DNA of 64,000 bases from an uncultured bacterium (GTDB lineage Bacteria; Oederibacteriota; JAAXVQ01; JAUVAV01): assembly GCA_963710755.1 (NCBI GenBank), contig CAVQBK010000003.1, positions 1,152,001-1,216,000 on the forward strand, given 5' to 3'. Below, one piece after another: positions 8,928 through 50,361 of this stretch. The stretch's first letter is position 1. Every line of letters begins with the position of its first letter. The notes under the pieces are model-generated. The model had not been told where the DNA came from, did no database searches, and saw nothing but the letters and a program-made list of their open reading frames with translations. Both the position numbers and the translations under genes were made by a program.

Positions 8928-8989
8928 CCACTACGGCAACAACATCCATCGAAGGTACCAAAATCTTATAAGGAAGGACAACGGCGTTA

Positions 8990-9814: not shown

Positions 9815-9872
9815 GTGCGTCCTGTCACGGGCAGGGCTTACACAACGTATCTAAACTCCTGTGGAGGTTTCG

Positions 9873-10538
9873 ATGGATCCTTTTACTGCCCAAATGGTGC
9901 TGATGAACCAACTCGGTCAATTTTCCAGTATTTTTCTTGAGCAGATTCGCGCTCTCCTGCTGGGTCTGGCTATTATTATTTCGGGACTGCTGGTGGCTGC
10001 CCTATGTGAATACCTGGCTATGTTTCTCTTCCGTATCGTCCGCTGGGAAAAATTCATGCAATGGGCAGGGCTGACTAAAATCATTCACAAAGCGCGGCCT
10101 GATCTGAGTACCACAGTGCTCTCATCGCAAGTGGTTTTTTGGCTCATATTGGTCAGCTTCTTCATGATGGCTTTGGAAAAAATGAAACTGGGATTCCTGA
10201 GCGATTTGGGCATGATTTATTTTGACCATATTGGTCAAGTGCTTTTGGCTCTGATAATTCTTGCCATCACGCTGCTTTTAAAGAGCGTATTCAGTCAACT
10301 AACGTTGCTGCTCACAGAACACGAGAGCGCTCCTCTGGCGGCAGGATTATCGGCCGCTGTGATCTGGAGTCTGGGGGTTTATTTGGCATTAATTACCCTG
10401 GCATTTAACCGAGAATTAAGTATAGCCGTAAGTGTACTGGTCATGATCGGGCAAATGGGTATGGCCGCCTTGCGCTGGATGAGCCCGGGCCGTGCTTACG
10501 ACACGATGGTTAGAGTCCGTGAGCAGGAGGAAGGATAA
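9873..10538 (+). CDS. membrane protein, CmpX/small mechanosensitive-channel TM-helix-like
   Basis: Five hydrophobic helices in a CmpX-like arrangement; GGAGG RBS before ATG 9873. Confidence 0.55.
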   Translation: MDPFTAQMVLMNQLGQFSSIFLEQIRALLLGLAIIISGLLVAALCEYLAMFLFRIVRWEKFMQWAGLTKIIHKARPDLSTTVLSSQVVFWLILVSFFMMALEKMKLGFLSDLGMIYFDHIGQVLLALIILAITLLLKSVFSQLTLLLTEHESAPLAAGLSAAVIWSLGVYLALITLAFNRELSIAVSVLVMIGQMGMAALRWMSPGRAYDTMVRVREQEEG

Positions 10539-10544
10539 TTCACC

Positions 10545-12518: not shown

Positions 12519-12601
12519 ACCAAGAGTTATGGACAAGGCCATGGGGAACCAAAGTCAGCAGGACTCTCGGGAGTGATTTGGCCGCAAGTAATTTTTGGGC
12601 A

Positions 12602-12630
12602 TTGTCAAACCTGTCCAGGTTCTATATAAT
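12602..12630 (+). promoter_or_regulatory. sigma70-type promoter for the der operon
   Basis: TTGTCA-17 nt-TATAAT. Confidence 0.7.
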
Positions 12631-12755
12631 CCAGCTCTGGACCATGTCTTATAGTCTCTTTATCAAGAGGGCAATAAGGTGCTAATCCTTTTTTACTCGA
12701 CTCCATTTCCCCGTTTCTTAACACGAGGTTATCCAGGTCACAACTTTGGCGGTAA

Positions 12756-14093
12756 ATGTCCATGGCAAGACATAGAGTAGTAGCGATTGTGGGCCGGCCC
12801 AATGTGGGCAAATCGGCTCTCTTTAACAGAATAGTGGGGAAAGCCAGGGCTATCGTGGATGAACATGCCGGCTTGACCAGAGACCGCAATTATGATCTGG
12901 CCAATTGGTTGGATCGTGAATTTCTACTAGTCGATACGGGCGGGTTTGAACTGCAGACCACAGACAGTATCTTAATGCAGATGCGGCTACAGACGGAAAT
13001 TGCCATTAATGAGGCAGATGTTATTGTCATGGTCGTGGATGGCCGCACGATCCTGGACAAGACCGACCGGGAATTGGCCAGCCGCTTGAGACAGTCCGGC
13101 AAACCGGTTGTGCTGGCGGTTAATAAGATTGATAATGCGGAGCTGGAAGCGGAGATCCATGGTTTTTGGAATATGGGATTTGGCCAACCGATCGGCATTA
13201 GCGCTATTCAGGGACGTTGTGTGGATGACTTGTTGGATGCGGTGATTGAACACATTCCTCCCCAGCTGCGGGAAGATGAGGACGACCTGGTCATTAAATT
13301 GGCGATCGTGGGGATGCCCAACGCTGGCAAATCATCCTTGGTCAATACTATCCTGGGCGAGGAACGAGTGTTGGTGAATGACACGCCCGGCACCACCCGG
13401 GACTCGGTCAGTTCTTTTTTTAATTACCAAGGCAAGGCTTACCAAATTGTCGATACCGCCGGCATGCGTGCCAAACGCAAAATCGAGCACGCGGTGGAGC
13501 GCTATGCGGTCATGCGCGCCCTCAGAAGTATCGAAGAGACGCATGTGGCTGTTATTCTCCTGGATGCCACCAAGCCCATCACCGAACAGGAAGAGCATAT
13601 AGCCGGCTATGTCCACGAATCCGGGCGCGCCAGCATTATAGCCATCAACAAGTGGGACCTTCTGGACAAGACCACCCATACTCAGGAGCAGTATTTGCAG
13701 ACATTGAAAAAACGCATGCCTTTCATGGATTACGCCCCGGTAGTGACCATTTCCGCTAAAACCGGCCAGCGGGTCAATAAACTGTTGGAGTTGGCAGCCT
13801 ATGTAAATGAGCAGCATGTGATGCGCATAAAAACAAGCTTGCTAAATAAGACACTTCACGATATCATCCAAAAACAACCACCGCCCACCAAACGGGGCAA
13901 AGTCTTAAAAATCAAATACATCAGTCAAACCGGCGTGCGGCCTCCGGCTTTTGCCCTGTTTGTCAATGATCCAGGCAGAATGCAACTCCATTACTTACGG
14001 CACATCAAAAATGAATTCCGCAAGCTATTCGGACTGGAAGGAACACCGCTTATCATAATGTTAAGAGCAGGGAAGGAGAATGCCCGTGGTTGA
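12756..14093 (+). CDS. der: ribosome biogenesis GTPase Der (EngA)
   Basis: Two G domains (GRPNVGKS, GMPNAGKSS), DTGG/DTAG, KH-like tail. Confidence 0.97.
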   Translation: MSMARHRVVAIVGRPNVGKSALFNRIVGKARAIVDEHAGLTRDRNYDLANWLDREFLLVDTGGFELQTTDSILMQMRLQTEIAINEADVIVMVVDGRTILDKTDRELASRLRQSGKPVVLAVNKIDNAELEAEIHGFWNMGFGQPIGISAIQGRCVDDLLDAVIEHIPPQLREDEDDLVIKLAIVGMPNAGKSSLVNTILGEERVLVNDTPGTTRDSVSSFFNYQGKAYQIVDTAGMRAKRKIEHAVERYAVMRALRSIEETHVAVILLDATKPITEQEEHIAGYVHESGRASIIAINKWDLLDKTTHTQEQYLQTLKKRMPFMDYAPVVTISAKTGQRVNKLLELAAYVNEQHVMRIKTSLLNKTLHDIIQKQPPPTKRGKVLKIKYISQTGVRPPAFALFVNDPGRMQLHYLRHIKNEFRKLFGLEGTPLIIMLRAGKENARG

Positions 14094-14736
14094 ATCTTGG
14101 TTAAAAATTATGGCAGCCTTGGCCCTGAGTTATCTATTGGGTGCCCTGCCCACAGGTTATCTCGCCGGCCGGCTGAAAGGTCTTGATATCCGAAAGCTGG
14201 GATCAGGTAACATGGGCGCCACCAATGTGATGAGAATCTTGGGTGTGCCGGCAGGGGTATTGGTAATGCTAATTGACGCGGCCAAAGGATTCCTGGCTGT
14301 GGCCTGGTTGCCAGGGTTGACACCCTATCCGGAATTTGACTGGCTGCGGGTGGGCTGCGGCTTGGCCGCAGTCCTGGGACATACCTTTACCTTATTTTTA
14401 AAATTTAAAGGTGGTAAAGGCGTAGCCACCACGGCTGGTATTTTTCTGGCCCTGGCGCCTATGGCTGCTGTGGTGACGCTTTTGATATTTGCATGTACGG
14501 TGGCCATGACCAAGACCGTGTCGGCCGGCTCTATTTTAGGAGCGCTCCTGTTACCGCCACTAGTTTGGATTTTGGGGGAAGCCGGACAAGGTTATAGCAT
14601 TCTTTTGATAGCCGTGGTATTGGCTATACTCATTGTGGCTCGTCATGGGGCCAATATTCAACGGTTGAAAAACGGCACGGAAAATAAAATCGGCCGGCCG
14701 GTGGAACCAAAAGACCAGCAGGGAGGGCCATCTTGA
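14080..14736 (+). CDS. plsY: glycerol-3-phosphate acyltransferase PlsY
   Basis: GSGNMGATN, FKGGKGVAT, RHGANI. Confidence 0.95.
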   Translation: MPVVESWLKIMAALALSYLLGALPTGYLAGRLKGLDIRKLGSGNMGATNVMRILGVPAGVLVMLIDAAKGFLAVAWLPGLTPYPEFDWLRVGCGLAAVLGHTFTLFLKFKGGKGVATTAGIFLALAPMAAVVTLLIFACTVAMTKTVSAGSILGALLLPPLVWILGEAGQGYSILLIAVVLAILIVARHGANIQRLKNGTENKIGRPVEPKDQQGGPS

Positions 14737-15731
14737 ACGAACCGATTGCCGTTATTGGGGCAGGCGCATGGGGCACTGCCCTAGCTATGGTACTGGCCCA
14801 GCAAGGCCGGCTGGTCAACTTGTGGGAATACTTTCCGGCTTACGCTCATGAGCTGCAAATCGGACGCGAAAATTACAAATTTTTACCGGGTATTACCATT
14901 CCCGATCAGATTACCATCACTCCTGACTTGGCCAAGGCCGTGCACGGCGCGGACATCATTGTTTTGGTTGTACCTTCCCAAGCCTTAAGAAGTGTGGTCC
15001 AACAATTGGCGCAGATGGAGATCGCCCCGCGCATTGTGGTGACAGCATCCAAAGGCATAGAAAAAAACACTCTGGACCGCATGTCGCAAATTGTTCAGGC
15101 TTACTTTGACAACCGCTGTCATGTAGTGGCTTTATCCGGCCCCAGTCATGCGGAAGAAGTCGCCCGCCGGTTACCCTGCACAGTAGTGGCAGCTTCGTCT
15201 GATGAACAAGCAGCGGAAGAAATCCAAATTCTCTTTACGAATGATCATTTTCGCGTCTATACTACTTCCGATATCATAGGCGTGGAATTGGGCGGGTCCC
15301 TGAAAAATATTATTGCTTTGGCTGCTGGGATCATCGATGGCTTAAGCTTGGGAGACAATGCCAAAGCCGCTTTGCTCACGCGAGGCCTGGCAGAAATGGC
15401 ACGGTTGGGGCAAGCTTGCGGCGCCGCGCCGGAAACATTTGCCGGACTAAGTGGTATGGGTGATCTGGTAGTAACCTGTACCAGCCAACATTCCCGTAAT
15501 CGACGAGTGGGTGAAGAAATCGGGCGAGGTAGACAATTAGATGATATTTTAAAGGATATGGAGATGGTGGCTGAAGGTGTGGAAACCACCCAATCTGCCT
15601 ACGCCCTAGGTCAGCGGATGAGTGTGGAATTGCCTATTATTGAACAGGTTCATCAAGTCTTATTTGACCATAAGCCGGCGAAGGACGCGGTGCGGATCTT
15701 AATGCAGCGTCCCCATAAACCGGAACGTTAG
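14733..15731 (+). CDS. gpsA: NAD(P)H-dependent glycerol-3-phosphate dehydrogenase
   Basis: GAGAWGTALA, SGPSHA, GLSGMGDLVVTCTS..SRN. Confidence 0.96.
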   Translation: MNEPIAVIGAGAWGTALAMVLAQQGRLVNLWEYFPAYAHELQIGRENYKFLPGITIPDQITITPDLAKAVHGADIIVLVVPSQALRSVVQQLAQMEIAPRIVVTASKGIEKNTLDRMSQIVQAYFDNRCHVVALSGPSHAEEVARRLPCTVVAASSDEQAAEEIQILFTNDHFRVYTTSDIIGVELGGSLKNIIALAAGIIDGLSLGDNAKAALLTRGLAEMARLGQACGAAPETFAGLSGMGDLVVTCTSQHSRNRRVGEEIGRGRQLDDILKDMEMVAEGVETTQSAYALGQRMSVELPIIEQVHQVLFDHKPAKDAVRILMQRPHKPER

Positions 15732-15773
15732 CATAAGAAAAAGGGAAGCCACCGGGGCTTCCGGAGGTGTTTG

Positions 15774-16118
15774 ATGAAAGACGAAGAAAAAACAGTTACC
15801 AAAGCAGAATTGGCTGCCAGTATTTCCAAATTGGGATTGTCCCTGCGGTTTTCCCAAACCGTGGTTGATTATATTGTTCAGGAACTAATTCAAACCCTTA
15901 GCCAGGGAGAGGTTATTCATTTGGTGGGGTTTGGTGCATTCCGCTTTAAGGTGAGAAATGCCAGACAGGGACGTAATCCTAAAACCGGCGAACAGGTGGC
16001 CGTGCCCAATAAAAAGATTATACAGTTTAAACCAGGCAATGAATTGAAAGAACGTATTCGTAAATCGAAAGAGCCGGCACAACCTTTTGTTCCGGAGGAA
16101 CCTGTTGATGGCCAATGA
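15774..16118 (+). CDS. HU/IHF-family DNA-binding protein (IHF-alpha-like position)
   Basis: GFGAF...ARQGRNPKTGE; sits before merR and tRNA-Pro as ihfA does in many bacteria. Confidence 0.9.
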   Translation: MKDEEKTVTKAELAASISKLGLSLRFSQTVVDYIVQELIQTLSQGEVIHLVGFGAFRFKVRNARQGRNPKTGEQVAVPNKKIIQFKPGNELKERIRKSKEPAQPFVPEEPVDGQ

Positions 16119-16494
16119 ACCAATCTCCAAACCCGGGCGGGCCTCTGGGGATAAAATGTTCTACCAAATAAAAGAAATCAGCGAGATGTTGGGTATAAAA
16201 TCCCATGTGTTGCGTTATTGGGAAACCGAATTTCCACAATTGCGTCCCGATAAAGGCAGTACCGGCCAACGTCTTTATCGTCCCAAAGATCTGGAACTGG
16301 TGAAAAGGATTAAAACGTTACTGTATGAAGAAAAATTTACCATTGCCGGGGCCAAAAAAAAATTAGCCGGAGAATTACGGCACGATAAATCTCAGATGGA
16401 TTTGAATTTAAACTTGCGTGAAAATCACTTATTGAATACAATCCATAAAGTCAAACGGGAATTAGAAAGTCTCTTGACCATTTTAAACCAATAA
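16108..16494 (+). CDS. MerR-family transcriptional regulator
   Basis: YQIKEISEMLGIKSHVLRYWETEFPQL...RLY...FTIAGAKK. Confidence 0.92.
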   Translation: MANEPISKPGRASGDKMFYQIKEISEMLGIKSHVLRYWETEFPQLRPDKGSTGQRLYRPKDLELVKRIKTLLYEEKFTIAGAKKKLAGELRHDKSQMDLNLNLRENHLLNTIHKVKRELESLLTILNQ

Positions 16495-16513
16495 TTTATA
16501 GTCTAAACCCTAT

Positions 16514-16589
16514 CGGGGCGTAGCGCAGTGGCTAGCGCGCACGCTTGGGGTGCGTGAAGTCGGAGGTTCAATTCCTCTCGCCCCGACCA
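16514..16589 (+). tRNA. tRNA-Pro(GGG)
   Basis: Cloverleaf; anticodon arm CACGC-TT GGG GT-GCGTG; T-loop GTTCAAT; encoded CCA. Confidence 0.95.
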
Positions 16590-16630
16590 GTTTAACTATA
16601 TTATAAATCCGGGACCCTTCGCAGCCCCGA

Positions 16631-16924
16631 CCGGAATTGATATTATGTGAAAGGGACGCTTCGCAGCCCCGACCGGAATTGATATTATGTGAAAGGGACG
16701 CTTCGCAGCCCCGACCGGAATTGATATTATGTGAAAGGGACGCTTCGCAGCCCCGACTGGAATTGATATTATGGGAAAGGGACGCTTCGCAGCCCCGACC
16801 GGAATTGATATTATGGGAAAGGGACGCTTCGCAGCCCCGACTGGAATTGATATTATGGGAAAGGGACGCTTCGCAGCCCCGACCGGAATTGATATTATGG
16901 GAAAGGGACGCTTCGCAGCCCCGA
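16631..16924 (+). repeat. tandem array of 7 x 42 bp (plus a degenerate 44-bp unit at 16587-16630)
   Basis: Unit C(C/T)GGAATTGATATTATG(T/G)GAAAGGGACGCTTCGCAGCCCCGA starting at 16631, 16673, 16715, 16757, 16799, 16841, 16883. Confidence 0.97.
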
Positions 16925-17153
16925 CCAGTCAGTGCCTAGGGAGGTGCATGACTGAAAATCGATCCGGCCTACAACTACGGGCCAAGCCATCGGGAGTCGG
17001 GAATTGATGACATGAGATTTTCGATTCGGCCGATTTTCGACATTCCATTTTCCTTTTTTTGGTTGTCCCCACCTCAGACATTGTGGCTGTTATTGGTCCA
17101 GCCATTGGTGGTAATAGACGTCATTTCGAATAAATGATTCTAATTATCCTTCC

Positions 17154-17181
17154 TTGATCTTTTCCTTATTTTTCGTATAAT
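17154..17181 (+). promoter_or_regulatory. sigma70-type promoter of tRNA-Pro(CGG)
   Basis: TTGATC-16 nt-TATAAT, ending 15 nt before the tRNA. Confidence 0.7.
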
Positions 17182-17196
17182 GTCAGCTACTTAAAT

Positions 17197-17272
<76 letters not shown>

Positions 17273-17502
17273 GTTTAACTATATTATAAATCCGGGACGC
17301 TTCGGGCAGGAGAAATGCCCTTGGCAGCCCCGACCGGAATCAATATTATTGGAAAGGGACACTTGGTGGTGGTCCATTTGTTGTGTTTGCTCGAGTGTTC
17401 CGGAGCCTGAGCATTTAGTTGGTCAGGTGCCCATAGCTGATCTCAGATACGCTAACGTCCCCGGCGGGGCGATGAAACTGGACATAGACGAAAGGAAAGG
17501 GG

Positions 17503-18243
17503 ATGACCCCAAAAAAGTGGATGATCAGTTGTTTCGGGGTGGGGGTCCTCGTTTTTTGTGCCTTTAAGCCAGCTGCTGCACAACTGGATGAAGCTACCTA
17601 TTATTTGGAACAATCCAGTTCTCTGAGCGGATCCACGGGGTGGATCAATATTCCTTCGCCCGCCGTTCCTGATAATGGTAAAATGACCGGTGGCCTGCAT
17701 CGTGGATCAGCCGAGTTTAATCTCGGCCTGTTGAATGTGATGGAAGTTGGGCTGTATTTTGAAGCCGACCGATTGGGAAAACAGTTTGATCGCTATAAAA
17801 ATTTATCAACTTGGGAAGAAGTTGAAAAAAACGTTCCGGCCTTTGTCAAGGAAGCGTTCAAAGGTCAGGCGAAAATCAAACTTTTGGATCAGGATTGGGG
17901 ATTAATTAATCTGGCGGTGGGGATGGAGAAGCAGGATTACTATATAGTCGGCCATCGTCACTTTCCTGAATTGTCCAATGTGACCTTGCTGGCCGGATGG
18001 GGCCGCGGGCGTTTTGAAAAAGGTTTTTTTGGATTAAGTAAGACTATTTTTTCAGGAGCCGATCTCATTTTTGAATTTGACGGTCAAGGGTTCAATGTGG
18101 GGTACCGATTATTGCTGGGTCCCAATCTAATTATGAATTTAGCCGGACAGGATTTGAACACTATTGGTGAGGTACAAAATCTAGGTCAGGTGATCTCCAA
18201 TCATTTGATTTTCGGAATTACCTATGTGGAGCGTATTTGGTGA
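17503..18243 (+). CDS. exported protein, YjbH-like outer-membrane beta-barrel
   Basis: Signal peptide; 'GSTGWINIPSP' resembles the YjbH-domain N-motif; beta-strand pattern ending in aromatic W. Confidence 0.55.
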   Translation: MTPKKWMISCFGVGVLVFCAFKPAAAQLDEATYYLEQSSSLSGSTGWINIPSPAVPDNGKMTGGLHRGSAEFNLGLLNVMEVGLYFEADRLGKQFDRYKNLSTWEEVEKNVPAFVKEAFKGQAKIKLLDQDWGLINLAVGMEKQDYYIVGHRHFPELSNVTLLAGWGRGRFEKGFFGLSKTIFSGADLIFEFDGQGFNVGYRLLLGPNLIMNLAGQDLNTIGEVQNLGQVISNHLIFGITYVERIW

Positions 18244-38282: not shown

Positions 38283-39401
38283 ATGATACAAGTGGCCATG
38301 TCTTCATATCTATCATCGCCGCCATCCTCAGGGAGGGGATTGGACAGTGATATCGCCAAAACCCTGATCCGTAAGCATCTGGCCCTGAATTTAGGGCATC
38401 AAGGCGTGATGAATGCCAAATTGAATTTGGCGGTCTTGATCAATGCCTTGCTCCAGGTCTCGCGGGAAAATGGGTTTATAAAATATGATGCCTTTGATAA
38501 AACCATCCAGGTCAAAGCTTTTGACCATTCCCCGGTGATCTATCAATACAATCCTTATCGCGATCCTGCTAATCGTCGGGCTGAGGGTCAGCCGGTCTCT
38601 AAAAAGCCAGGACGCAAAACTGATTTTTTGGCTTGGGAAACATTTCCGGAAAATGAACACTATCTTATCTGGCAGGCGCCCAGCCGCATGCACTACGGCA
38701 TTTTAGTGCAGCCAGCGCCTATCGTGCCGGGTCATCTGATTATTGCCTCGCTTACCAGAAATCATGATACCCAACAGCATTTTCCCCAACAAATGCCGCT
38801 TAATTTGTTTAAGGATATGCATGTGCTTCGATCAGAATTGGCCAAAATTGGATATGTTATGGGCTACAATCCTTGGGGGGGCGGCGCCTCGGTTGATCAC
38901 TTTCATGTCCAGGCAGTGCCGGCGATGTATTTGCCGCTGGTTGGCCTATTGGATCAAAACAAAATAAGCGGCAGTTATCAAGGGCATGATCAGCAGGGTG
39001 TTTCCATTGAGGTTATTGACAATGAAGATGATGGTTCGGAAAACCGCTATCCTGCCAATGCGCTGGTGATGCGTTCCAATTTTAAAGAATTGCTTTATGA
39101 ACGCAAAAAACAACTGCTTGATTATTTAAACCGCGAAAAAATATTGTGTAATATATTGAGTTGGCAGCAAACCTCCGGAATGGCCGTGGATGTATTTCTT
39201 CCCCGGGGAGAGGAGTCGGTGATGGATCATGCTTTTAATGCCGGCTATGTGGAAATGGCCGGCATGTTGGTTATCCCTTATAAAGCTTTGTTTGACAGTA
39301 TTAATGATCCCAAGAGCGGAGAAGAGGCCTTGCGTCAGGCTTCCTATCCAAAAAAAGATTTTTCCAAATTAGTCAAAATTATTAAGATGTTTTTCCGGTG
39401 A
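38283..39401 (+). CDS. HIT-superfamily HxHxQ nucleotidyl transferase/phosphorylase (GDP-sugar phosphorylase/DUF4922-like)
   Basis: 'QYNPYR', 'P.PIVPGHL', 'HFPQ', 'GYNPWGGGASVDHFHVQ', 'EMAG' motifs. Confidence 0.7.
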   Translation: MIQVAMSSYLSSPPSSGRGLDSDIAKTLIRKHLALNLGHQGVMNAKLNLAVLINALLQVSRENGFIKYDAFDKTIQVKAFDHSPVIYQYNPYRDPANRRAEGQPVSKKPGRKTDFLAWETFPENEHYLIWQAPSRMHYGILVQPAPIVPGHLIIASLTRNHDTQQHFPQQMPLNLFKDMHVLRSELAKIGYVMGYNPWGGGASVDHFHVQAVPAMYLPLVGLLDQNKISGSYQGHDQQGVSIEVIDNEDDGSENRYPANALVMRSNFKELLYERKKQLLDYLNREKILCNILSWQQTSGMAVDVFLPRGEESVMDHAFNAGYVEMAGMLVIPYKALFDSINDPKSGEEALRQASYPKKDFSKLVKIIKMFFR

Positions 39402-39809: not shown

Positions 39810-42800
39810 ATGCTAAAACCACGGTGGGATAACCTTGGCCACATGGGAAAGCTTGTATCAAGTCGCCCGACAAGACCGGCCGAGCGCCTGCAGGTCATGC
39901 TGAAGCGCAGTGTAACCCTATTGTTGTCAGTATTTATGTTTTTGCCTCATGTGACGTGGGCCTTTTCTTCTTTGCCAAGATATGGTGATCCCATTGTCAT
40001 CAACGATCGTCCCTTGGCAGTGCCATCTTATTTGGGAAAAATCAGAGCTTTGAAAAAAGGTAAAAACAAACTGGTCATTCATATTCAGGATTTCCATTGT
40101 CACGACCAAATTCAAGAAACCATTGCGCAGTTGATCAAGTACCTTCATTATTCTTATGGGGTCAACCTGGTGGCGATCGAAGGTGCCCGTGGTCCTTTGG
40201 ATATTTCAAAACTGTCTACTTTCCCATTGGAAGAAATTAAGCAGCAGGTAGGCCACTATTTTATTAGACAAGGAAAATTGTCGGGCGCGGAATTGGCGGT
40301 GGCCCTTGATCCCAAGGGCCTGCGATTGGTGGGCATAGAAGATGAGGTGCTCTATCAACAAAGTTACGCTTTGGTGCAAAACTTTTATTCGCGGGAGGTG
40401 GAGGGGGTCCTACTTGATTTGCGCCAAGCTTTCGAGGACCTCAAACCCGCCATCTACTCCCCTGAACTTCGGAAATGGGATAGCCTTAAAGTAGCCCTGC
40501 ATAACGGTAAAATCTCCTTTTATCATTATTGTGAATTGCTAATCAAAGCAGCCCGAACACAACATCTAAATCCGGCACCTTACGGCCATGTCATGACCTA
40601 TCTGGCCACCAAACAGGCCAGTTTCAGCAACACCATAGATGTGAAGGTGCTCTTTCAGCAGGTGAGGGCTTTGGACCAGGCGGGGCGGGAACTTTTCTAT
40701 CAGCAAGACAAGCAACGGACTTTTGACCAATTGCTCGATTATTTGGAAATGATTCAGAATTTACTGGGCATTTCCATTACTGATGACGAATTGGAGATGA
40801 TCCGGCACCATCGGGAAGCGTTCCGCTTAAAACGTTTTCTTGATTTTTATAAAACTTATGGCAACGAAGGCATGCTGCTGCTCGATGATCAAGTGGTGCG
40901 TTTGGACCAATGGGTGGATGACGGCTTGCACTTTTACCAGTTGGCAGATGAGCGGAGCAACCAATTTGTACGCCATACCTTGGAGGCCATGGCAAACCAG
41001 CAACAATCGGTTGCGGTTTTGATCACCGGGGGGTATCACAGCCAGCATATTGAGGAAGCGCTTAAACAAGCCGGCGTGAGTTATATCGGGGTTGATCCCC
41101 AAATGCGTCAATTTGATTTGCAGAACCCTTATACTGAACTCATCCGCGGTTATAAAACCCCTTTGGAAAAAATCCTGGCGCTCAATAATGATTTAATGGC
41201 CTTAAAACCTTTTGCAGTTCCTTTGCAGCGCGGACAATTGCCGGTGGGTGAAAATCTGCCGCAAGATAAACGTAGTGATTATGCATTGATGGACCTCATG
41301 TTGGAAACCGCGACCACGGGGGCTGTGATTAATCGTGAGAAGGCGCGCTTTGTCAAAAAGAAAGTGACGGCAGCGGTAAAGGCTGTCCTGGACAATTATC
41401 CGGCTGATAATCCAAAGGTAGGTTTGGCTCTGGACGACCTGGCGGGCGACAGCCACGTATGCCATGTGCCTCTGAAGCATTCAGCCTTTGAAGCGGTTTT
41501 TTACCATCCACAAGATGATGCTATGGTCGATAAGGTAGCCGCTACCACGGTGCCTTTGGCCGGGGGTCAAAAAGCAGCGTTTTATAAGCGTAGCTTGTGG
41601 CCAACCATTCAAAAGGCGCTGACCAAGGTCAATCGCAAAACCGTCACCACCGTAGCCTTCTCTCTTCGGCAATGGCGTACGCAAGCCAAACAAATTTTGG
41701 GCATCTGGTTTCGCCAGCTGCTGCCAACGGGGGAAAGCCGGGGGTTGATTTGGCGTACGGCCAAAAGCATGGCCATGGCAGCGGCACTGTTTATGGCCGG
41801 TGGGTTTTTAAACATGGCCCAAGCTGCCACCACGCTTATCCATTATACAGTAGCCAAGTATGACCGTTTATCCGCTGTTGCCCGGCGTTTGGGCGTTGAT
41901 GTGTCGAGTTTTCATCTGGCCAATCCTGATCTCATTCATCCCGGCGATCAGGTGTCTGCCGTGGTGGCGGATGCGGATAAAATCAGACAGGCCGGTCATC
42001 ATGCCCGGGGCGTGGTAGACGTGTTCCCCCTTTCGGACAGGGATTTTGATATACCCAGCCCCTCCCCAAAGTTTGATATGCCGCTGCCTTCCCGCGATTT
42101 TGATATACCAGATGGCAGTTTTGCCAATCCATTATCTATGGCGCACACAGCCCATGCCACTTATGTGGAGTCAACCTGGCATGGCTTTTCCCATTGGACC
42201 GCTCAAAGTGTCGACGGTCTTTGGCAATCCCTTCACAGCTTGCCGGTTGATGTTCATTGGCTGGTGGGCGGCATTGCGCTTCTGGCCGTGGCTGGCGCTG
42301 TGGCCTTGGCCAAGCCCGTCATAAGCCAACGCACCGCCAGGGCCTCTATTTCCGATTCCTTGAAAAGAGCTTATGTCCAGCGGGAACGGTTGGAAAAAGA
42401 ACTGGCGATCACCTTTGAAAACACGAAAGGCACTTATCACGAGGTGTTCAGCGGCAATTACAGCTTGCTCAGAGCCAAAACCAAGTTCCTCCTTCGGCAT
42501 GATCTCATCCTGAATCCCTTTGTCCTCCGTTATAGCTTGGACCGCTTAAAAGTATTGGCCAAAGAGGTGGAACTCAAACGCCAGGAAGGATTGGAGGTTG
42601 GTTTTAAACAACTGAAAACCATGCTTGCCCATCCTGCGCTTGTGGTGCCCACTCCGGAAACCCTGGCCGATCTGCCCGGTGCCGCCAAAACGTTGCTGCA
42701 AGCGGCGCATCAAAACTATGCCGAGCCCTTGATGGTGCAAGTGGTGACCCGGCTTTTAAACCTGCGCTGGTTGCAACCCCTGGGCCAAGGACGGTCTTAC

Positions 42801-45800
42801 CCCCAAATCGCCCAAGCCGCAGCCCAAGGGGAAAAAAGCCTGGCCGTGGTTGTCTGGTATCGCGTGATGGTGCAAGGGCTCTCGCGGTTGTTTATCCCGT
42901 TTTTTATGCCAATCATATTAATTAAAAATAATTTGGCCCGCCCCTCCCTGATCACGACTTTGTTGATTATCCTGACCGTGGCTGCCAACGTGCAGCTGCC
43001 CTTGACTCCGCCCGGCTGGATCGTGACGGGCATCATCAGCATGGCGCTGGTGAACGAGGTCCTGATCATCCATTACCTGGATCAGCGACGGCAAGCAATT
43101 AAGGCCAACAACAAGCCGGCGTATGCTTCTGAAGAAGAAAGGAAGCAGGCCGAAGAGGTTGGCCAATTGGCCGTCCGGAAAAAAATTAAATTAGCCGTCA
43201 TGCCTATTTATATGGAAATGATGAGTGATTTGAAATTGGCCATTGGCTTGGTGCCTATTGTCACCCAGCTGTCGCCTGATCCCACTTCCTGGACCATGAC
43301 CTTTGTGTTGATGACGGTTTTGCTGGGCATGATGGGGGTTTTGGTTATGACGGCCAACATTGCCATGACCAGGAGCAGGGAAAAACGGTGGTTGAAACTA
43401 AGTGAACTATTTTGGACCCTCATTGATGAATGGAAAAAGATCTGGGCAGGCATGGTTCAGGACTTTCATGATTTTCTTAAAAACAAGGCCATGCAACCGC
43501 ACACGACGTTGCTGGCCGTCGGGCTGTTCATCATGGCCAGGATGTTCGATTACAGTTCCAAGTTTTTAGCCCTCGGTTCCCTGGCTGCCATTGGTCTTTA
43601 TGCCGGGACAGGGGTCGCCATGATCTTTGTGGCCATTATTCTTATTAAAAATTACACCAAGGACTCGGACTGGTTGGAAAAGTTGGCCACCAATACCATC
43701 AAAATTGTGGCGGCCGTGGTGCTTATTGAAGTCAGTAAATTTCCAGCGGCGTTTTTCATGGCTGTTTTTTTAGGCAATGCGCTGGGCGGGCAGGTGCAGG
43801 ACGTTAGCCTGAAAATGTTTAAGAAAGTAGCCGGCATTTTGTCCTTTGCACAATTTTTCCTCAACGTGGCCGACTTTATCCTACGCAAACAAAAATTATC
43901 GGCATTGCCAATGCAGCGAGCCGACAAAACCAAGAAACGCTCTTTACTCAATCGTATATGGGACAATTTCCAGCCAGGCCAGCCCATTCGGGACATTGCC
44001 ATGTTTTTTGCTTTTGCTTCTTTGCTATTCATTACTTATCATATCAGTCCGGCCGTGCCGTTGTTGCTCAGCCTGCAACTATTCAGCTTGATCGGCCTGA
44101 TTACCAAGTGGCTGACCATGTCCAAAAATTTCAAAGTTAATCAAACCGTTAAAATCACCACTTTGGCCTCCTTGATACCTGCTTCATTGCTGATTTTTTC
44201 CATGGTATTTACAGGCGGCTTGGCTTGGATTGGCCAAACCTGGCCGGCCTTGCTGCCCGAAGCCCTGGCGACCCCCATGGTGCAGTTTGGCACCATGTTT
44301 CATTTTCTGAACGGTACGCTGGTGGATCTTTCCGTTTTTGTGGTATTTATGTACAGCCTGCTTGGTTTCTCCAGCGTGCTCAAGGATCAGGATAAGATCA
44401 GCAAAGTATCGGAAGTGGCCTATTCCAGGACCAAGACGCTGCAGCAAATTATTGATCATTATATTGAAGGTGTGGTGCTCTATATTTATCAACATCCCGG
44501 CGTGACACCGGACATGGCCAGGCTCAGGCAACTTTGCAAAACCGGTCATCTGCTTTTGGTGCCCAAAAAAGCGGCCCCCAGTTGGATGGGCGATCTGATC
44601 AAAAGCGGGATATTTTCCTTTGGCAATGAAATTTATATCCGCCGCCGGGTTTTTAACCTGGTCAGCGACCGTACCGTGGCCGGGTTGGTAATCCGTGAAG
44701 GCCTGCTGCAAGCCGGGCTGCCCATAGGGGAAGTCCGGGCCATTGTGGAACATCTGACCCACCGTTCGGCCGTGGATCTGGCCTTATTGCCAAAAAAAAT
44801 TCTGGAGAGCAAGGAAATGGAAATGGACACGGTCCTGGCTTTTGAAAGGACCGGCAAGCCATTAAGCGAGAAGAAAAGAGCCAAGCGGCAATATCATGCT
44901 CTGCAATGGCGTTACAACCTTACTTTTGAAACACCATTCCAGGACGATATCCAAACCTTTTGCGGTAACTGGGGGGACCTGAATAATAAAATTCAGATCC
45001 TTCTGCTTCATGGCATTACGCCTCATCCCTTTTTCTTGAAGTATGAACAGAACCAAATTGAGGCAGCAGCCAAGATCCTGGAGCAACAAAAAAAACCAGG
45101 CCGCCGTCTGAGCTTGGGAGATTACAAATGGGCCATGGAGCAGGTCATTGAAAGGGAAGCGGCGCACGAAGGGACATCTATTTTGGAAGTCCAGGAAAAT
45201 GCCCACCTGGATGAGGACAGTTATTTCCAAACCGCAGGTAGTGACATTAAAAGCCTGGAGCGCCGTGGGGAACAACAGACTGACAAGGCGGTGGTCAACT
45301 TGGAAGGTTGGGCTTTGATTAAACAAAGCGCCATTAATTTTTTCTACCGTCATGATGAGCGGGAACCAAAGAGACGGGTGTTGCGGCTGCCCTGGCTCAT
45401 TTTGGTCGTCATCCTCCTTGGGCCCGTGGCCATGATCAAAGAAGCAGCCGTTTCCGTGAGCCATGCGGTGGTGGCCATCAACCGCAAGCTTTTTATGCAA
45501 CGCCACAAGGAACTCAAAACGGCGGAGGTGGCGCCAGAAACTTGGGAGGATAAGAAGGGGTTATTAAGACAATACGGCCTACCCTTGGATCCCTTCTTTG
45601 ACTTATTCAGCTTGGCCAGATTAACTATTGCGCTACCCAAAATTAAACAAAAAATAGAGGAAGGAAACCGCCCCGATACCAGCCTCTATGTGCAAGTACT
45701 CCAAGAAAGCCAGCGTTCCAAGGGGCCTGGAAAAGGCCATCATTCCCAAAAGCATGCCGCCATCTTCTCGCCGGCTCTCGATGGTCAAGAATTAGGATAT

Positions 45801-48014
45801 CTGACAGAGCAAGCCGCTGCGGGCGCCATGCCCGTCAAAGAGGAATTGGGATTCTGGGGCAAGGTTCTGGAAAAGATATTAATGGTCATTATATTTGAAG
45901 AAAATAATGATGGGATCGATCAGCGACAGCTGCGCTGGCCCTGGTCCAAGCTGGGTCCGATGGTAAGAGGGGCGCTTGCTTACAGCCGGTTGTTGCTGGC
46001 CTCCTGGCTAACCGCGCCGGCCCACACAAAGGAAGTGACGGTGGACGAAACCCAGCCAGCCGTCAGGCGTCTGCTCTTGGAGGCCGGCTTGCCAGATGTG
46101 ATGACCACCAGCTTTTTAGCCAACCGTGCCGGCTTTGAAATTAAACCAGTCCACTTGGCGGGGATTAAGGTGGAAGGCCGCTTGCCGTGGTTGAAGCCAG
46201 CCTATTGGCAGGGATATTACCAAGAGGAAGGCCGTCATAGGGAGCCCACCATTTATGTTCCCAATGCTTTGCTTGATATAGTGTTAAACCGCCAAAGCAA
46301 TAGCCAAGCTGGATGGCAGGCTTGGATTGCTGGTCTGAAATACCGAGCGCTGCGATGGTATTTTAAACTGGTGCTGCAGCATCATCGCGATAACTATTAT
46401 GCCCAAAAGGGACAGGACCTGAGTGACCTGATTATTAGCCAACGGCGACAAGCCTTGACATCGGAGTACACTCTTGCACCCTTGCCTGCAAGCAGCCAGA
46501 CCACGAAAGTGAAAGAACAGTACCGATCGTGGTTCCTGGAACAAGCCGGTTGGCTTCATGCAGCTGCTGCCAAAAGTCAAACCGATCCTTTGACCGTTGA
46601 GGCTTATCGCCATCCGCAAGAGCATATGGTTTTGGGTCTGTATGATTTGGTAAGTATTGTCGAGCAGGAATTGGCGCCTTTAAAGCACTGGCTGAATGCA
46701 GGCTCGGAACCAAACACTTTAGATGTAGAAGCCTTGCTGCAACAACAAGCCAAACGTGGTGCTGACATCAGTCCGGTGACGTTGTTACACCAGATCCCTG
46801 AACTGCAACAGACCATGCTCAGTGAAGGCTTGCAGGTTATTCAAACCGCACTGCAGGAGGCGCAGACAACCGCATTGCCGCAAGCCCTGATACGGCAAGA
46901 CAGCTTGGCCTACCTGGTGCAGCATCAGGCCAGCAGATCGAATCATCTGCGCCTGGTTCAGCAGGTTACTGACTATCCGCAGCAGGTTTCCTTACTGTCC
47001 ATGCCCCAGACCGCCCGGCTGTTAATTACTATGATCGATCAATGGATGACCAAAGTCCTGGTCCAAGGGGGGGTGCCGCCACAGGTGCTGGAGCAAGTAC
47101 AGTATCTCACCCAATTGAAGATAGCCTTGCAGGAGATGACGGCGGCGAGGCCAGGGACATTGATTCCTTTGGCACCGTCTTTGGGTCATCGGGTTTGGGA
47201 TTCGGCTGCAGAAGTGGCCCAGGAGGAACAACCTGAGCTCATGAGTCTGGGCCAGGATTTGAACAACTACCAGTATGCTTTTACCAATGGCCGTGTAAAC
47301 GTCATGGAAATCGGAGAAGATGCCATGCTGGTCAGTAGGCAGGTTGTCAATATCACCAGCCTGGATAAATTGGATTCTTCCATCCAGGCCTTAAGCCTCA
47401 TGGAGTCGGGTGCAGTAATTTCTGAAATTTATCAAGGCCGGGAAAACAACGCTGAATCCCCTGAGCCGGACTCATTCTGGCTGGACCCTCTTAAGAAAAC
47501 AGGGCTGCATTTGGTATTGCTGCTCCCGGGAGCTTGGCAACAACCTTATCTGCGCTTTTGGCTAAGCCAGGATCCAGCCTTGGTGGCAGAAGTCCAATTG
47601 TCCAGCACCCCCTCGCCATTGGCCGGGTTATTGCGCGATCATCGGACACCTTTGAGGCAATTATATGAACGCTGGGCCAGGACCCGAACTGAGGACCAGC
47701 TAACCGCTTTGGTTCGTGCCATGATTCGTGTCATTGCCCACTTGGACAAGAAACAGGACATTCAGGCCAGTTTGGAGACCCTGTCGGGGATAAGTCGTCT
47801 GCCGGGTATGCATGCCGAAATGATCGGTAAATGGCTTGACAAGGAAAGTAAGCATTATCAAGTGTTCGTACCGGGGGTGCTCCTACAGCCTGGCCAAGGG
47901 GGCGCGCTGGGAGCGCTTATTGATGTACTCAATCCCCTGCCGGTCCAGCTGGAAAAACAAATAGGCGAACACTATAAACGCCGGCTCTTCCGCGACGCGG
48001 CTCAGGCTGCTTAA
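39810..48014 (+). CDS. giant (2734 aa) multi-pass membrane protein with predicted TIKI/EreA/ChaN-like N-domain and LysM
   Basis: 8.2-kb uninterrupted ORF with AAGGAG RBS; HIQDFH..IEG..R..GGYH; LysM-like 'YTVAKYDRLSAVARRLGV...NPDLIHPGDQV' at ~41841-41955; many hydrophobic helices ~42260-44390. Confidence 0.85.
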   Translation: MLKPRWDNLGHMGKLVSSRPTRPAERLQVMLKRSVTLLLSVFMFLPHVTWAFSSLPRYGDPIVINDRPLAVPSYLGKIRALKKGKNKLVIHIQDFHCHDQIQETIAQLIKYLHYSYGVNLVAIEGARGPLDISKLSTFPLEEIKQQVGHYFIRQGKLSGAELAVALDPKGLRLVGIEDEVLYQQSYALVQNFYSREVEGVLLDLRQAFEDLKPAIYSPELRKWDSLKVALHNGKISFYHYCELLIKAARTQHLNPAPYGHVMTYLATKQASFSNTIDVKVLFQQVRALDQAGRELFYQQDKQRTFDQLLDYLEMIQNLLGISITDDELEMIRHHREAFRLKRFLDFYKTYGNEGMLLLDDQVVRLDQWVDDGLHFYQLADERSNQFVRHTLEAMANQQQSVAVLITGGYHSQHIEEALKQAGVSYIGVDPQMRQFDLQNPYTELIRGYKTPLEKILALNNDLMALKPFAVPLQRGQLPVGENLPQDKRSDYALMDLMLETATTGAVINREKARFVKKKVTAAVKAVLDNYPADNPKVGLALDDLAGDSHVCHVPLKHSAFEAVFYHPQDDAMVDKVAATTVPLAGGQKAAFYKRSLWPTIQKALTKVNRKTVTTVAFSLRQWRTQAKQILGIWFRQLLPTGESRGLIWRTAKSMAMAAALFMAGGFLNMAQAATTLIHYTVAKYDRLSAVARRLGVDVSSFHLANPDLIHPGDQVSAVVADADKIRQAGHHARGVVDVFPLSDRDFDIPSPSPKFDMPLPSRDFDIPDGSFANPLSMAHTAHATYVESTWHGFSHWTAQSVDGLWQSLHSLPVDVHWLVGGIALLAVAGAVALAKPVISQRTARASISDSLKRAYVQRERLEKELAITFENTKGTYHEVFSGNYSLLRAKTKFLLRHDLILNPFVLRYSLDRLKVLAKEVELKRQEGLEVGFKQLKTMLAHPALVVPTPETLADLPGAAKTLLQAAHQNYAEPLMVQVVTRLLNLRWLQPLGQGRSYPQIAQAAAQGEKSLAVVVWYRVMVQGLSRLFIPFFMPIILIKNNLARPSLITTLLIILTVAANVQLPLTPPGWIVTGIISMALVNEVLIIHYLDQRRQAIKANNKPAYASEEERKQAEEVGQLAVRKKIKLAVMPIYMEMMSDLKLAIGLVPIVTQLSPDPTSWTMTFVLMTVLLGMMGVLVMTANIAMTRSREKRWLKLSELFWTLIDEWKKIWAGMVQDFHDFLKNKAMQPHTTLLAVGLFIMARMFDYSSKFLALGSLAAIGLYAGTGVAMIFVAIILIKNYTKDSDWLEKLATNTIKIVAAVVLIEVSKFPAAFFMAVFLGNALGGQVQDVSLKMFKKVAGILSFAQFFLNVADFILRKQKLSALPMQRADKTKKRSLLNRIWDNFQPGQPIRDIAMFFAFASLLFITYHISPAVPLLLSLQLFSLIGLITKWLTMSKNFKVNQTVKITTLASLIPASLLIFSMVFTGGLAWIGQTWPALLPEALATPMVQFGTMFHFLNGTLVDLSVFVVFMYSLLGFSSVLKDQDKISKVSEVAYSRTKTLQQIIDHYIEGVVLYIYQHPGVTPDMARLRQLCKTGHLLLVPKKAAPSWMGDLIKSGIFSFGNEIYIRRRVFNLVSDRTVAGLVIREGLLQAGLPIGEVRAIVEHLTHRSAVDLALLPKKILESKEMEMDTVLAFERTGKPLSEKKRAKRQYHALQWRYNLTFETPFQDDIQTFCGNWGDLNNKIQILLLHGITPHPFFLKYEQNQIEAAAKILEQQKKPGRRLSLGDYKWAMEQVIEREAAHEGTSILEVQENAHLDEDSYFQTAGSDIKSLERRGEQQTDKAVVNLEGWALIKQSAINFFYRHDEREPKRRVLRLPWLILVVILLGPVAMIKEAAVSVSHAVVAINRKLFMQRHKELKTAEVAPETWEDKKGLLRQYGLPLDPFFDLFSLARLTIALPKIKQKIEEGNRPDTSLYVQVLQESQRSKGPGKGHHSQKHAAIFSPALDGQELGYLTEQAAAGAMPVKEELGFWGKVLEKILMVIIFEENNDGIDQRQLRWPWSKLGPMVRGALAYSRLLLASWLTAPAHTKEVTVDETQPAVRRLLLEAGLPDVMTTSFLANRAGFEIKPVHLAGIKVEGRLPWLKPAYWQGYYQEEGRHREPTIYVPNALLDIVLNRQSNSQAGWQAWIAGLKYRALRWYFKLVLQHHRDNYYAQKGQDLSDLIISQRRQALTSEYTLAPLPASSQTTKVKEQYRSWFLEQAGWLHAAAAKSQTDPLTVEAYRHPQEHMVLGLYDLVSIVEQELAPLKHWLNAGSEPNTLDVEALLQQQAKRGADISPVTLLHQIPELQQTMLSEGLQVIQTALQEAQTTALPQALIRQDSLAYLVQHQASRSNHLRLVQQVTDYPQQVSLLSMPQTARLLITMIDQWMTKVLVQGGVPPQVLEQVQYLTQLKIALQEMTAARPGTLIPLAPSLGHRVWDSAAEVAQEEQPELMSLGQDLNNYQYAFTNGRVNVMEIGEDAMLVSRQVVNITSLDKLDSSIQALSLMESGAVISEIYQGRENNAESPEPDSFWLDPLKKTGLHLVLLLPGAWQQPYLRFWLSQDPALVAEVQLSSTPSPLAGLLRDHRTPLRQLYERWARTRTEDQLTALVRAMIRVIAHLDKKQDIQASLETLSGISRLPGMHAEMIGKWLDKESKHYQVFVPGVLLQPGQGGALGALIDVLNPLPVQLEKQIGEHYKRRLFRDAAQAA

Positions 48015-49995: not shown

Positions 49996-50361
49996 GTGCA
50001 GCAAGTGGCCATGAAATTCAAACATAACGGTGATGTCACCATTATCAATATTTTGGGTGATGTTGACATGGAAGAAGTTGTTCAGCTTCGCAATGCTATC
50101 TCCACCATGGTGCATGAGGAGCATTATCAACTGGTGCTTGACCTATCCAAGGTCCAACACATCAATGCCACAGGCTTGGGTATCATGGCGGAAAGTTTAA
50201 AAAAACTGCGCGCTGTGCACGGAGATCTTCGCCTCGCCCATCTTAACCCTTATATACAACAAGTATTCAACTTGACCGACATGACGCGACATTTTCGCAT
50301 TTATGCCCGACGCCAGGATGCCATCCAAAGCTACCATGCCTTGACTTACGCTGCCGCGTGA
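49996..50361 (+). CDS. STAS-domain (anti-sigma antagonist-like) protein
   Basis: GDVD, LVLDLSKV.HINATGLG, GDLRLA.LNP.I.QVF; start may be ATG 50011. Confidence 0.85.
   Translation: MQQVAMKFKHNGDVTIINILGDVDMEEVVQLRNAISTMVHEEHYQLVLDLSKVQHINATGLGIMAESLKKLRAVHGDLRLAHLNPYIQQVFNLTDMTRHFRIYARRQDAIQSYHALTYAAA

Follow-up and report, generated by a model that had tools for sequence, protein, structure and literature searches.

A 2734-residue giant protein with a TIKI/EreA/ChaN-type head and a terminal Ala-Ala tag in an uncultured Oederibacteriota bacterium

The giant gene and its family share a head fold with conserved residues

The window analysed here is a 64,000-nucleotide (nt) stretch from an uncultured bacterium (GTDB lineage Bacteria; Oederibacteriota; JAAXVQ01; JAUVAV01), located on contig CAVQBK010000003.1 of assembly GCA_963710755.1 (positions 1,152,001 to 1,216,000, forward strand). 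It contains a giant gene, an ATG-initiated open frame of 2734 amino acids (aa) at 39810..48014 (+), whose product starts with a head domain of the TIKI/EreA/ChaN type, continues into a long body rich in hydrophobic segments and ends in a short tag terminating in Ala-Ala. The sequence AAGGAG lies 11 nt 5' of the ATG and the frame is stop-free across 8.2 kb at 50% GC. An earlier interpretation made from the letters alone (the sequence-only reading) had listed a set of motifs in this protein and these, like the open frame, were all recovered in place: HIQDFH at aa 91, IEGARG at aa 123 (containing E124), DERSNQ at aa 380 (R382), GGYH at aa 407, MAMAAALF..NMAQA at aa 654-672, LVIRE at aa 1626 (nt 44685), VLQHH at aa 2188 (nt 46371) and AAQAA at aa 2730-2734. 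Comparison of the whole protein with Pfam and NCBIfam gave chance-level rows only, and scanning it segment by segment against Pfam at E <= 10 added a single weak LysM match.

A search of the organism's own genome (3.44 Mb, 98% complete) with aa 50-470 returned 33 matches, spread over 31 open frames with lengths of 635-9474 aa. The matches were always located at frame residues ~45-490 and had identities of 30-41%. Together, the 31 head-bearing frames total 80,801 aa, equating to 7.0% of the genome; long frames are common in this genome, as 185 stop-to-stop frames of >=800 aa make up 24% of its 3.44 Mb. The sequence-only reading had called the protein an orphan, which is incorrect because 30 paralogs share its N-domain and thousands of metagenomic relatives exist.

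The head core (39957..41219, aa 50-470, +) was assigned to the TIKI/EreA/ChaN-superfamily fold from an AlphaFold (AF2) model, fold searches and invariance among the paralogs. The model, built on an alignment of 26 heads (A1), had a mean pLDDT of 88 and a pTM of 0.85, and contained a helical insertion of ~220 residues between strands. When compared with 48,161 solved chains using VIA, without Foldseek pre-filtering, the best match was HopBA1 (Z 10.5, 173 aligned residues, root-mean-square deviation (rmsd) 4.0), followed by ChaN (Z 9.2), the Bacillus Ere-like protein 2qgm (Z 8.9), EreC (Z 8.9) and Bcr135 (2rad, Z 8.2). All of these top five belong to the TIKI superfamily (166-188 aligned residues, rmsd 4.0-5.3), and the next, unrelated, row had a Z of 7.5; RRSP (Z 6.3) and PMT (Z 6.2) were found lower in the ranking. 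The top four Foldseek entries were EreC and Bcr135, with EreC first (E 2.8e-3, probability 0.97), although TM-scores were low (0.23) because the ~220-residue helical insertion sits differently. The TIKI/EreA-like assignment of the N-domain, initially proposed from its H/E/R/GxxH set, was therefore confirmed by structure comparison with that set in place.

The motif residues of the head core are D94-x-H96, E124, E177, R382-S383 and G407-G408-x-H410. H96, E124, R382, G407, G408 and H410 were invariant in all 31 paralogs, whilst D94 (Asn in the remaining copy), C97 and E177 were kept in 30/31. In the model, the catalytic-type residues sit just past strands 39-45, 71-74 and 352-358. Passages of PMC6254334 give the superfamily's 2His/2Glu set in RRSP as E3900, H3902, E3930 and H4030, and the corresponding His-Glu pair in Bcr135 as H85-E113; the spacing of 28 between H96 and E124 equals that of both proteins (H3902-E3930 and H85-E113).

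With the TIKI/TraB-PrgY/EreA-EreC/ChaN superfamily (solved members 5t09, 2g5g, 2qgm, 2rad, 6xcq and 5w6l), the head has in common the core fold (Z 8.2-10.5) and the order in which the motifs occur at strand ends, namely acid-x-His, a Glu 28 residues further on, an Arg in a helix and G-x-x-His. It differs in having Asp as the first acid, ~220 inserted helical residues and an extension to ~aa 640; in place of a short tail, thousands of residues come after it. This C-terminal extension of the head (41220..41729, aa 471-640, +) is kept in orthologs and many family members. Using phmmer, aa 70-562 aligned to an ortholog from another genus (G007) and aa 165-637 to a fragment from a third genus (G013), and the A1 family profile reached ~position 580 in relatives.

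The head was also linked to the superfamily through sequence. A head homolog (P0307, E 7.9e-17) passed the Pfam ChaN/'Tiki superfamily' model PF04187 with 32.0 bits (cut-off 27.7) and another, P0308, scored 24.0 bits on the same model. PDB sequence searches with the head alone, or with the head profile, returned nothing meaningful. Because the superfamily's Pfam models miss the window protein even at E <= 10, we consider that the head, judged on its predicted structure and alignments, is a new sequence family inside the known TIKI/EreA/ChaN superfamily.

We further investigated the occurrence of the head outside this genome. Every one of the 14 other genomes in the order contained it (7-37 matches per genome, on frames of up to 13,678 aa), and it was found in 0/84 genomes of the phylum's other orders at E <= 1e-5. 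Exhaustive HMMER searching of 1.84 billion metagenomic cluster representatives gave 7,397 matches at E <= 1e-3, 5,385 at E <= 1e-10 and 972 at E <= 1e-30. All 150 of the metagenomic matches listed begin within the first ~130 residues of their host proteins, which reach 7,768 aa, and many database matches of 400-750 aa consist of the head only. The nearest named relatives were from metagenome-assembled genomes of candidate division FCPU426 and Candidatus Firestonebacteria. Weaker relatives (22-33% identity), among the 37 listed, included seven from Omnitrophica/Omnitrophota, two from Elusimicrobia and one from Chlamydiae.

The head is preceded by a predicted N-terminal signal peptide or signal anchor (39888..39965, aa 27-52, +), comprising a basic n-region, a hydrophobic core and the motif ..P-x-[VL]-[ST]-W-A-F-[ED]. 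Its Kyte-Doolittle (KD) peak is 1.6, and 4-5 Lys/Arg occur in the 15 residues before the segment and 1-2 after it. Amongst the 31 paralogs the consensus of this leader is TFxxPYLTWAFE, with position 50 occupied by Trp in 26 copies and Phe in five.

A C-terminal tag is enriched in the family and paralog tails are diverse

The window protein ends in the tag KRRLFRDAAQAA-COOH (47976..48011, +), a basic stretch followed by a terminal Ala-Ala. The pattern [AGSTNQ][AS][AV]-COOH after a K/R-rich stretch was present in 22/30 C-complete head-bearing frames, compared to 17/2,223 other ORFs. Five of these 17 tagged non-head ORFs are >=1000 aa, and three of the five look like split giant genes, since they overlap the end of an untagged head-bearing frame. 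Hence the combination anticipated by the sequence-only reading, a common N-domain and a ..AA C-terminus around variable middles, was found within the organism's own genome. Outside it, the pattern occurred in 82/157 relatives retrieved from the searches, many of the 157 being cut by contig ends, and three of eight distant relatives end in ..SAA, ..TAA or ..AAA. In the subfamily of the window protein (24-sequence alignment A2), the C-terminus reads RRR[LM]FR-x-[AS]-x-AA, with the last residue invariant and the penultimate nearly so. Separately, an 8131-aa frame (C4:21437-45829) carries the same tag (..GAGSAA) without a detectable head.

By analogy, the tag resembles ssrA and the substrates of tail-specific proteases. 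In ssrA-like degrons, a terminal Ala-Ala-COOH is recognised by ClpX, FtsH or Tsp. The tmRNA gene of this genome (C2:14814-15168, -) encodes the tag peptide GEQEFALAA, so that its own ssrA tag ends in ..FALAA and, like ClpX C-motif 1 and tail-specific protease substrates, has a terminal Ala-Ala with a free carboxylate in common with the giants. Unlike ssrA, the tag of the giants is gene-encoded and has a conserved basic stretch ahead of it (RRRLFR in the subfamily).

Four head-bearing giants are split into two to four overlapping frames (C3:409593-423663; C13:366379-383045; C6:5580-16438; C1:307030-321624), with overlaps of 16-247 nt and the Ala-Ala tag on the last frame. These represent either real frame changes or pseudogenes, or assembly errors.

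The region between head and tag was non-homologous and varied from copy to copy. Searching the organism's own genome with the non-head remainder of the window protein (phmmer) returned only the protein itself. Pfam domains of cytoplasmic-type enzymes were detected in 15/30 other paralogs (E <= 1e-5). This included PPDK_N in four paralogs, two of them together with PEP-utilizers, as well as HD_3 plus NUDIX, HD_5, GH77, alpha-amylase, glucoamylase, TreT_GT1 plus GT1, NTP_transferase, cytidylate kinase, GNAT, transglutaminase, GGDEF and LMWPc. No Pfam domain was found in the window protein or in the 2613-aa ortholog from G007. A strong hydrophobic peak was found at residues 591-733 in 21/31 paralog frames. 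Among more distant head-bearing proteins, precomputed Pfam lists give PF14890, which we take to be an intein-type domain, and the membrane proteases M50, M48 and rhomboid (P0305, P0313, P0289, P0298 and P0310); these domains may be relevant to self-processing in other family branches.

The body of the window protein and its neighbourhood

Sequence comparison indicates that the giant gene is real and not an artefact, because a contig of a sister species encodes the last 977 aa at 56% identity and because the 2613-aa G007 ortholog has three blocks in common with it (aa 70-562, aa 1071-1779 and aa 2023-2734). Over aa 1071-1779, identity to the G007 ortholog is 38% (E 1.6e-146), rising to 42% over aa 1500-1777. 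In G007 (L013, G007:C2:44000-62000, 8443-18001, -), a head-bearing giant of 12,450 aa is found immediately upstream of this ortholog, and the giant's C-terminus carries the same end of the C-terminal module described below; giants can therefore sit in tandem.

Residues ~638-1121 form a lineage-specific insert, because the G013 fragment skips from aa 637 to aa 1122. The insert holds an internal signal-like helix, a LysM-like segment, a Pro/Asp repeat and the helix at aa 815-833. The first of these is the signal-peptide-like hydrophobic stretch MAMAAALFMAGGFLNMAQA (41769..41825, aa 654-672, +), found at the usual site of the paralogs' second transmembrane helix. It is followed by the sub-threshold LysM-like segment (41844..41951, aa 679-714, +), for which scanning aa 640-777 alone gave a Pfam E of 0.02 and 15.3 bits (cut-off 20.9). 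This segment covers 39/43 positions of the LysM profile (PF01476), and LysM proteins are the top PDB sequence matches of aa 665-730 (Ecp6 E 0.01, MltD LysM E 0.023, a cell-wall endopeptidase E 0.09); it differs from LysM in its score below the cut-off and in having Y-D-R-L where G-D-T-L is usual. In a distant relative, P0315, a hydrophobic helix (721-749) ending in ..PAMA|F leads directly into a true LysM (28.4 bits, residues 760-800), the same order as for MAMAAALFMAGGFLNMAQA|A and the LysM-like segment here. The arrangement of a signal-like helix and LysM noted by the sequence-only reading thus recurs elsewhere in the family, whereas the LysM of the window copy itself falls short of the threshold. 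If outside, the segment would tie the head to the cell wall. Further along the insert are the Pro/Asp mini-repeat (42039..42110, aa 744-767, +), formed by RDFDIP (aa 744 and 762) and KFDMP (aa 754), and a strong transmembrane helix followed by a basic segment (42252..42308, aa 815-833, +; KD 2.12, with 0 K/R before and 4 after).

A KD scan (19-residue window, cut-off 1.6) gave 14 peaks, namely the leader, aa 815-833, ~11 within aa 1020-1520 and aa 1858-1876, which leaves about 13 hydrophobic helices in the body and agrees with the 'well over ten' counted previously. Most of these form a polytopic membrane region of ~11 predicted helices (42840..44387, aa 1011-1526, +), for which there was no Pfam match and no usable ESM Atlas match. 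The bundle is followed by a predicted soluble region, conserved in the orthologs, that holds EIYIRRRVFNLVSDRTVAGLVIRE (44388..45146, aa 1527-1779, +), and by the last transmembrane helix (45372..45464, aa 1855-1885, +; KD 2.29). Look-alike stretches of ~50 aa (..LL-x-x-x-G-[IL]-x-P-x-P-F..) follow three membrane segments, at aa 880-940, 1718-1780 and 1908-1970 (nt ~42447-42629, 44961-45149 and 45531-45719), and aa 1725-1776 aligns to a second site in the G007 ortholog (phmmer, E ~0.01). Self-BLAST at E <= 1 did not confirm these stretches as a repeat.

The protein ends in a 720-aa C-terminal module (C-module; 45852..48011, aa 2015-2734, +) that is common to the C-termini of giants from related genomes. 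This included giants of 8763, 11265, 8807, 13678 and 8820 aa, and shorter versions lacking the middle third were also present. In the organism's own genome, profile and sensitive genome searches found the module whole only in the window protein and partially in two or three others. Its AF2 model had a pLDDT of 78 and a pTM of 0.65, and the fold search gave no clear relative (best Foldseek E 0.038, best VIA Z 5.4). Likewise, nothing meaningful was found when its profile was compared with PDB sequences, there was no usable match in the ESM Atlas, and 24 C-module sequences gave single chance rows only against Pfam.

The sequence-only reading had also seen decayed zincin-like motifs in the body, an idea that was not supported. 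No HExxH occurs in the window protein or in the G007 ortholog; LVIRE aligns with MIFRE in that ortholog, again without HExxH, and at the site aligned with VLQHH the motif was found in 0/24 C-module sequences, the consensus being G-Y-Q-A. Five of the best 50 C-module fold matches were zincins (three M1 aminopeptidase catalytic domains, abylysin and selecase) that align to model residues 61-190 (aa 2075-2204), the stretch with TIYVP and VLQHH. With Z values of 4.3-4.8, which lie in the noise range, this model-based likeness is a hint only.

The giant gene lies downstream of a leuB-like gene, asd, a histidine kinase gene, truA and a DUF4922 gene, and upstream of rplM, rpsI and the mraZ-murD division/cell-wall (dcw) cluster. 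The DUF4922 gene (E 4.7e-9; 38283-39401, +) follows truA and is separated from the giant gene by a 408-nt AT-rich spacer. Within the dcw cluster, a STAS-domain gene (49996-50361, +) is located between mraZ and rsmH, an unusual insertion there. No synteny was found between the neighbours of the window gene and those of the G007 ortholog, and the flanks of the 31 head loci had no recurrent partner or secretion gene, apart from common histidine kinases. On these two grounds the proximity of division and cell-wall genes is probably a coincidence. Among public sequencing runs, no RNA run was listed as containing this DNA, and four DNA runs from three studies matched it with word shares of 0.43 or less.

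Interpretation and comparison with other giant proteins

We consider it reasonably probable that the window protein is one of a large family of giant inner-membrane proteins built on one plan, in which a hydrolase head precedes a membrane-anchored body and a tag with a shared reader. An N-terminal signal peptide or anchor would be followed by a ~590-aa head with a His-Glu/His/Arg site. The layout of TIKI1/2 and PrgY, consisting of a signal peptide, the domain and a membrane helix, is the same as that seen here, and export of the head to the periplasmic side, as for those proteins, is the most likely arrangement; a position on the outer face is also suggested because a basic n-region precedes the first hydrophobic segment. 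There it may act as a peptidase or esterase on an envelope or extracellular substrate. After the head the chain would return through the membrane and continue as a long, copy-specific body in and under it, with the ATP-, PEP- and GTP-dependent domains presumably on the cytoplasmic side. For the window copy, this body would comprise the LysM-like insert, the ~11-helix bundle and the 720-aa C-module. Finally, a shared machine could recognise the basic plus Ala-Ala tag. This might be a protease of the AAA+ or tail-specific type, or some other reader of C-termini, and it would control the turnover or processing of these very long proteins.

Several observations weigh against this plan. The site has Asp (D94) as its first acid where the 2His/2Glu set has Glu, albeit a conservative change, and the superfamily's Pfam models, as noted, give no match to the window protein even at E <= 10. 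That a TIKI-type fold can be non-catalytic is known from ChaN and PMT. The hydropathy of aa 654-672 is borderline (KD 1.35), and whilst the charge around aa 815-833 fits a periplasmic location of aa 53-814, the same pattern conflicts with aa 654-672 being a membrane helix. At the C-terminus, 8/30 paralogs lack the tag, though three of these eight precede an overlapping frame that has it; the residue at position -3 of the tag is Q/S/G/N and not the Leu of ssrA, and nothing links the tag to any protease.

Such points leave some room, in our view a small one, for the head as a non-catalytic or ligand-binding periplasmic input, like haem-binding ChaN, that controls the cytoplasmic body, making each giant a one-protein transducer. 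A first transmembrane segment, a periplasmic domain and a second hydrophobic segment (the latter in 21/31 frames) form a layout typical of many sensors, the tails include GGDEF, HD and LMWPc domains with a HAMP histidine kinase in a distant relative, and ChaN is both the second-best structural match and the model through which the Pfam bridge was made. However, the His, Glu, Arg and His residues are invariant in 31/31 paralogs whose overall identity is only 30-39%, which is what would be expected of a catalytic site, and the window copy has no recognisable output domain.

The sequence-only reading had favoured a contact-dependent effector or modular polyprotein, exported and cut by its own TIKI-like head, for attachment or attack. 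We regard this as unlikely, a shade more so than a sensor. The TIKI fold does include toxin effectors, with HopBA1 as the top match and RRSP and PMT further down, and there is the LysM-like segment. Some distant relatives contain peptidase domains (M50, M48 and rhomboid in the precomputed Pfam lists), and distant head homologs occur on giants of Omnitrophota, a group whose giants are interpreted as prey-directed in two preprints and a further paper (10.1101/2023.11.21.568195; 10.1101/2025.01.14.632903). Yet the ~13 hydrophobic helices argue that the body is anchored and not released, and the paralog tails hold enzymes needing ATP, PEP, GTP or acetyl-CoA. Furthermore, if the head is periplasmic, the membrane would lie between it and most of the chain that it has to cut. 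No secretion-system or other gene recurs at the 31 loci, apart from common histidine kinases, and the neighbours of the window giant are housekeeping genes (truA, rplM-rpsI, dcw).

We find it highly improbable that the long frame is open by chance, or that mis-assembly joined a head gene to the genes behind it. Such a reading draws on the frame changes that split four head-bearing frames of this genome, on the many 400-750-aa database matches that contain the head alone and on the helix at aa 654-672, which resembles the start of a separate secreted protein. Against it, the order of head, bundle and C-module is kept in the other-genus ortholog of 2613 aa, the sister species has a tail of 56% identity, the 8.2 kb are stop-free at 50% GC, and head and tag occur together in 82/157 relatives.

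Returning to the proposed family of membrane-anchored giants with a hydrolase head, its closest known counterparts include the Omnitrophota 'Archaeovorin' and multi-enzyme giants. The two groups are alike in their very long frames and many membrane helices, and in their content of PPDK_N, NUDIX, HD, GGDEF, GT1 and starch/glucan enzymes (West-Roberts et al. 2023, 10.1101/2023.11.21.568195; Nielsen and Lui 2026, 10.64898/2026.06.07.730766). In addition, distant head homologs (25-33% identity) were found on Omnitrophica/Omnitrophota proteins, which account for seven of the 37 relatives listed. In contrast, the proteins described here span 0.6-13.7 thousand amino acids (kaa) compared to 30-147 kaa, the window protein being about a tenth of their length, and belong to one order of another phylum, whose genomes carry 7-37 of them each. 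Archaeovorins are described as having numerous membrane helices and, in most cases, a divergent SecA DEAD domain (10.1101/2023.11.21.568195). No SecA-like domain was found in the window protein by Pfam at E <= 1, the published ones having needed structure prediction, and the genes next to the window giant include none for type II or type IV secretion.

The superfamily fold and multi-enzyme giants are already known, whilst the common head and common tail of these giants are apparently undescribed. The main text of both giant-protein preprints, supplements apart, does not mention a TIKI/TraB/Ere-like head or a C-terminal tag in the portions seen (10.1101/2023.11.21.568195; 10.64898/2026.06.07.730766), and West-Roberts et al. 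(2023) state that the N-terminal regions of giant proteins are generally without identifiable domains (10.1101/2023.11.21.568195). Passages of the Lipocone preprint describe gigantic Omnitrophota proteins with LysM and peptidases and mention no TIKI-type head (10.1101/2025.01.14.632903). In the full-text literature, no paper joined giant, Omnitrophota and erythromycin esterase, and combining FCPU426 or Firestonebacteria with giant gave nothing relevant among the papers listed.

More speculatively, giant proteins of the FCPU426/Firestonebacteria relatives, Omnitrophota and Elusimicrobiota could share a dedicated handling system, with the head at one end and the tag at the other, an idea we hold to be doubtful. 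In such a system the tag would mark a chain translated to its true end, as a mirror of ssrA, and hand it to an AAA+ or PDZ-type reader, whilst the exported TIKI-like head would serve as a common catalytic or maturation module on the outer face. If true, giant proteins would follow a new logic of biogenesis or quality control.

The catalogue of giant bacterial proteins is growing fast, but nothing yet unifies what is understood of their synthesis, placement and turnover. The family described here offers testable starting points. Its head, found in thousands of these proteins and missing from Pfam, is conserved, adopts a known fold and keeps its active site intact. Its short C-terminal tag is roughly 100-fold enriched relative to the remaining proteome, and at least 7% of the genome's DNA goes into 31 genes of this kind. 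Head and tag are each of a size suited to expression and assay.

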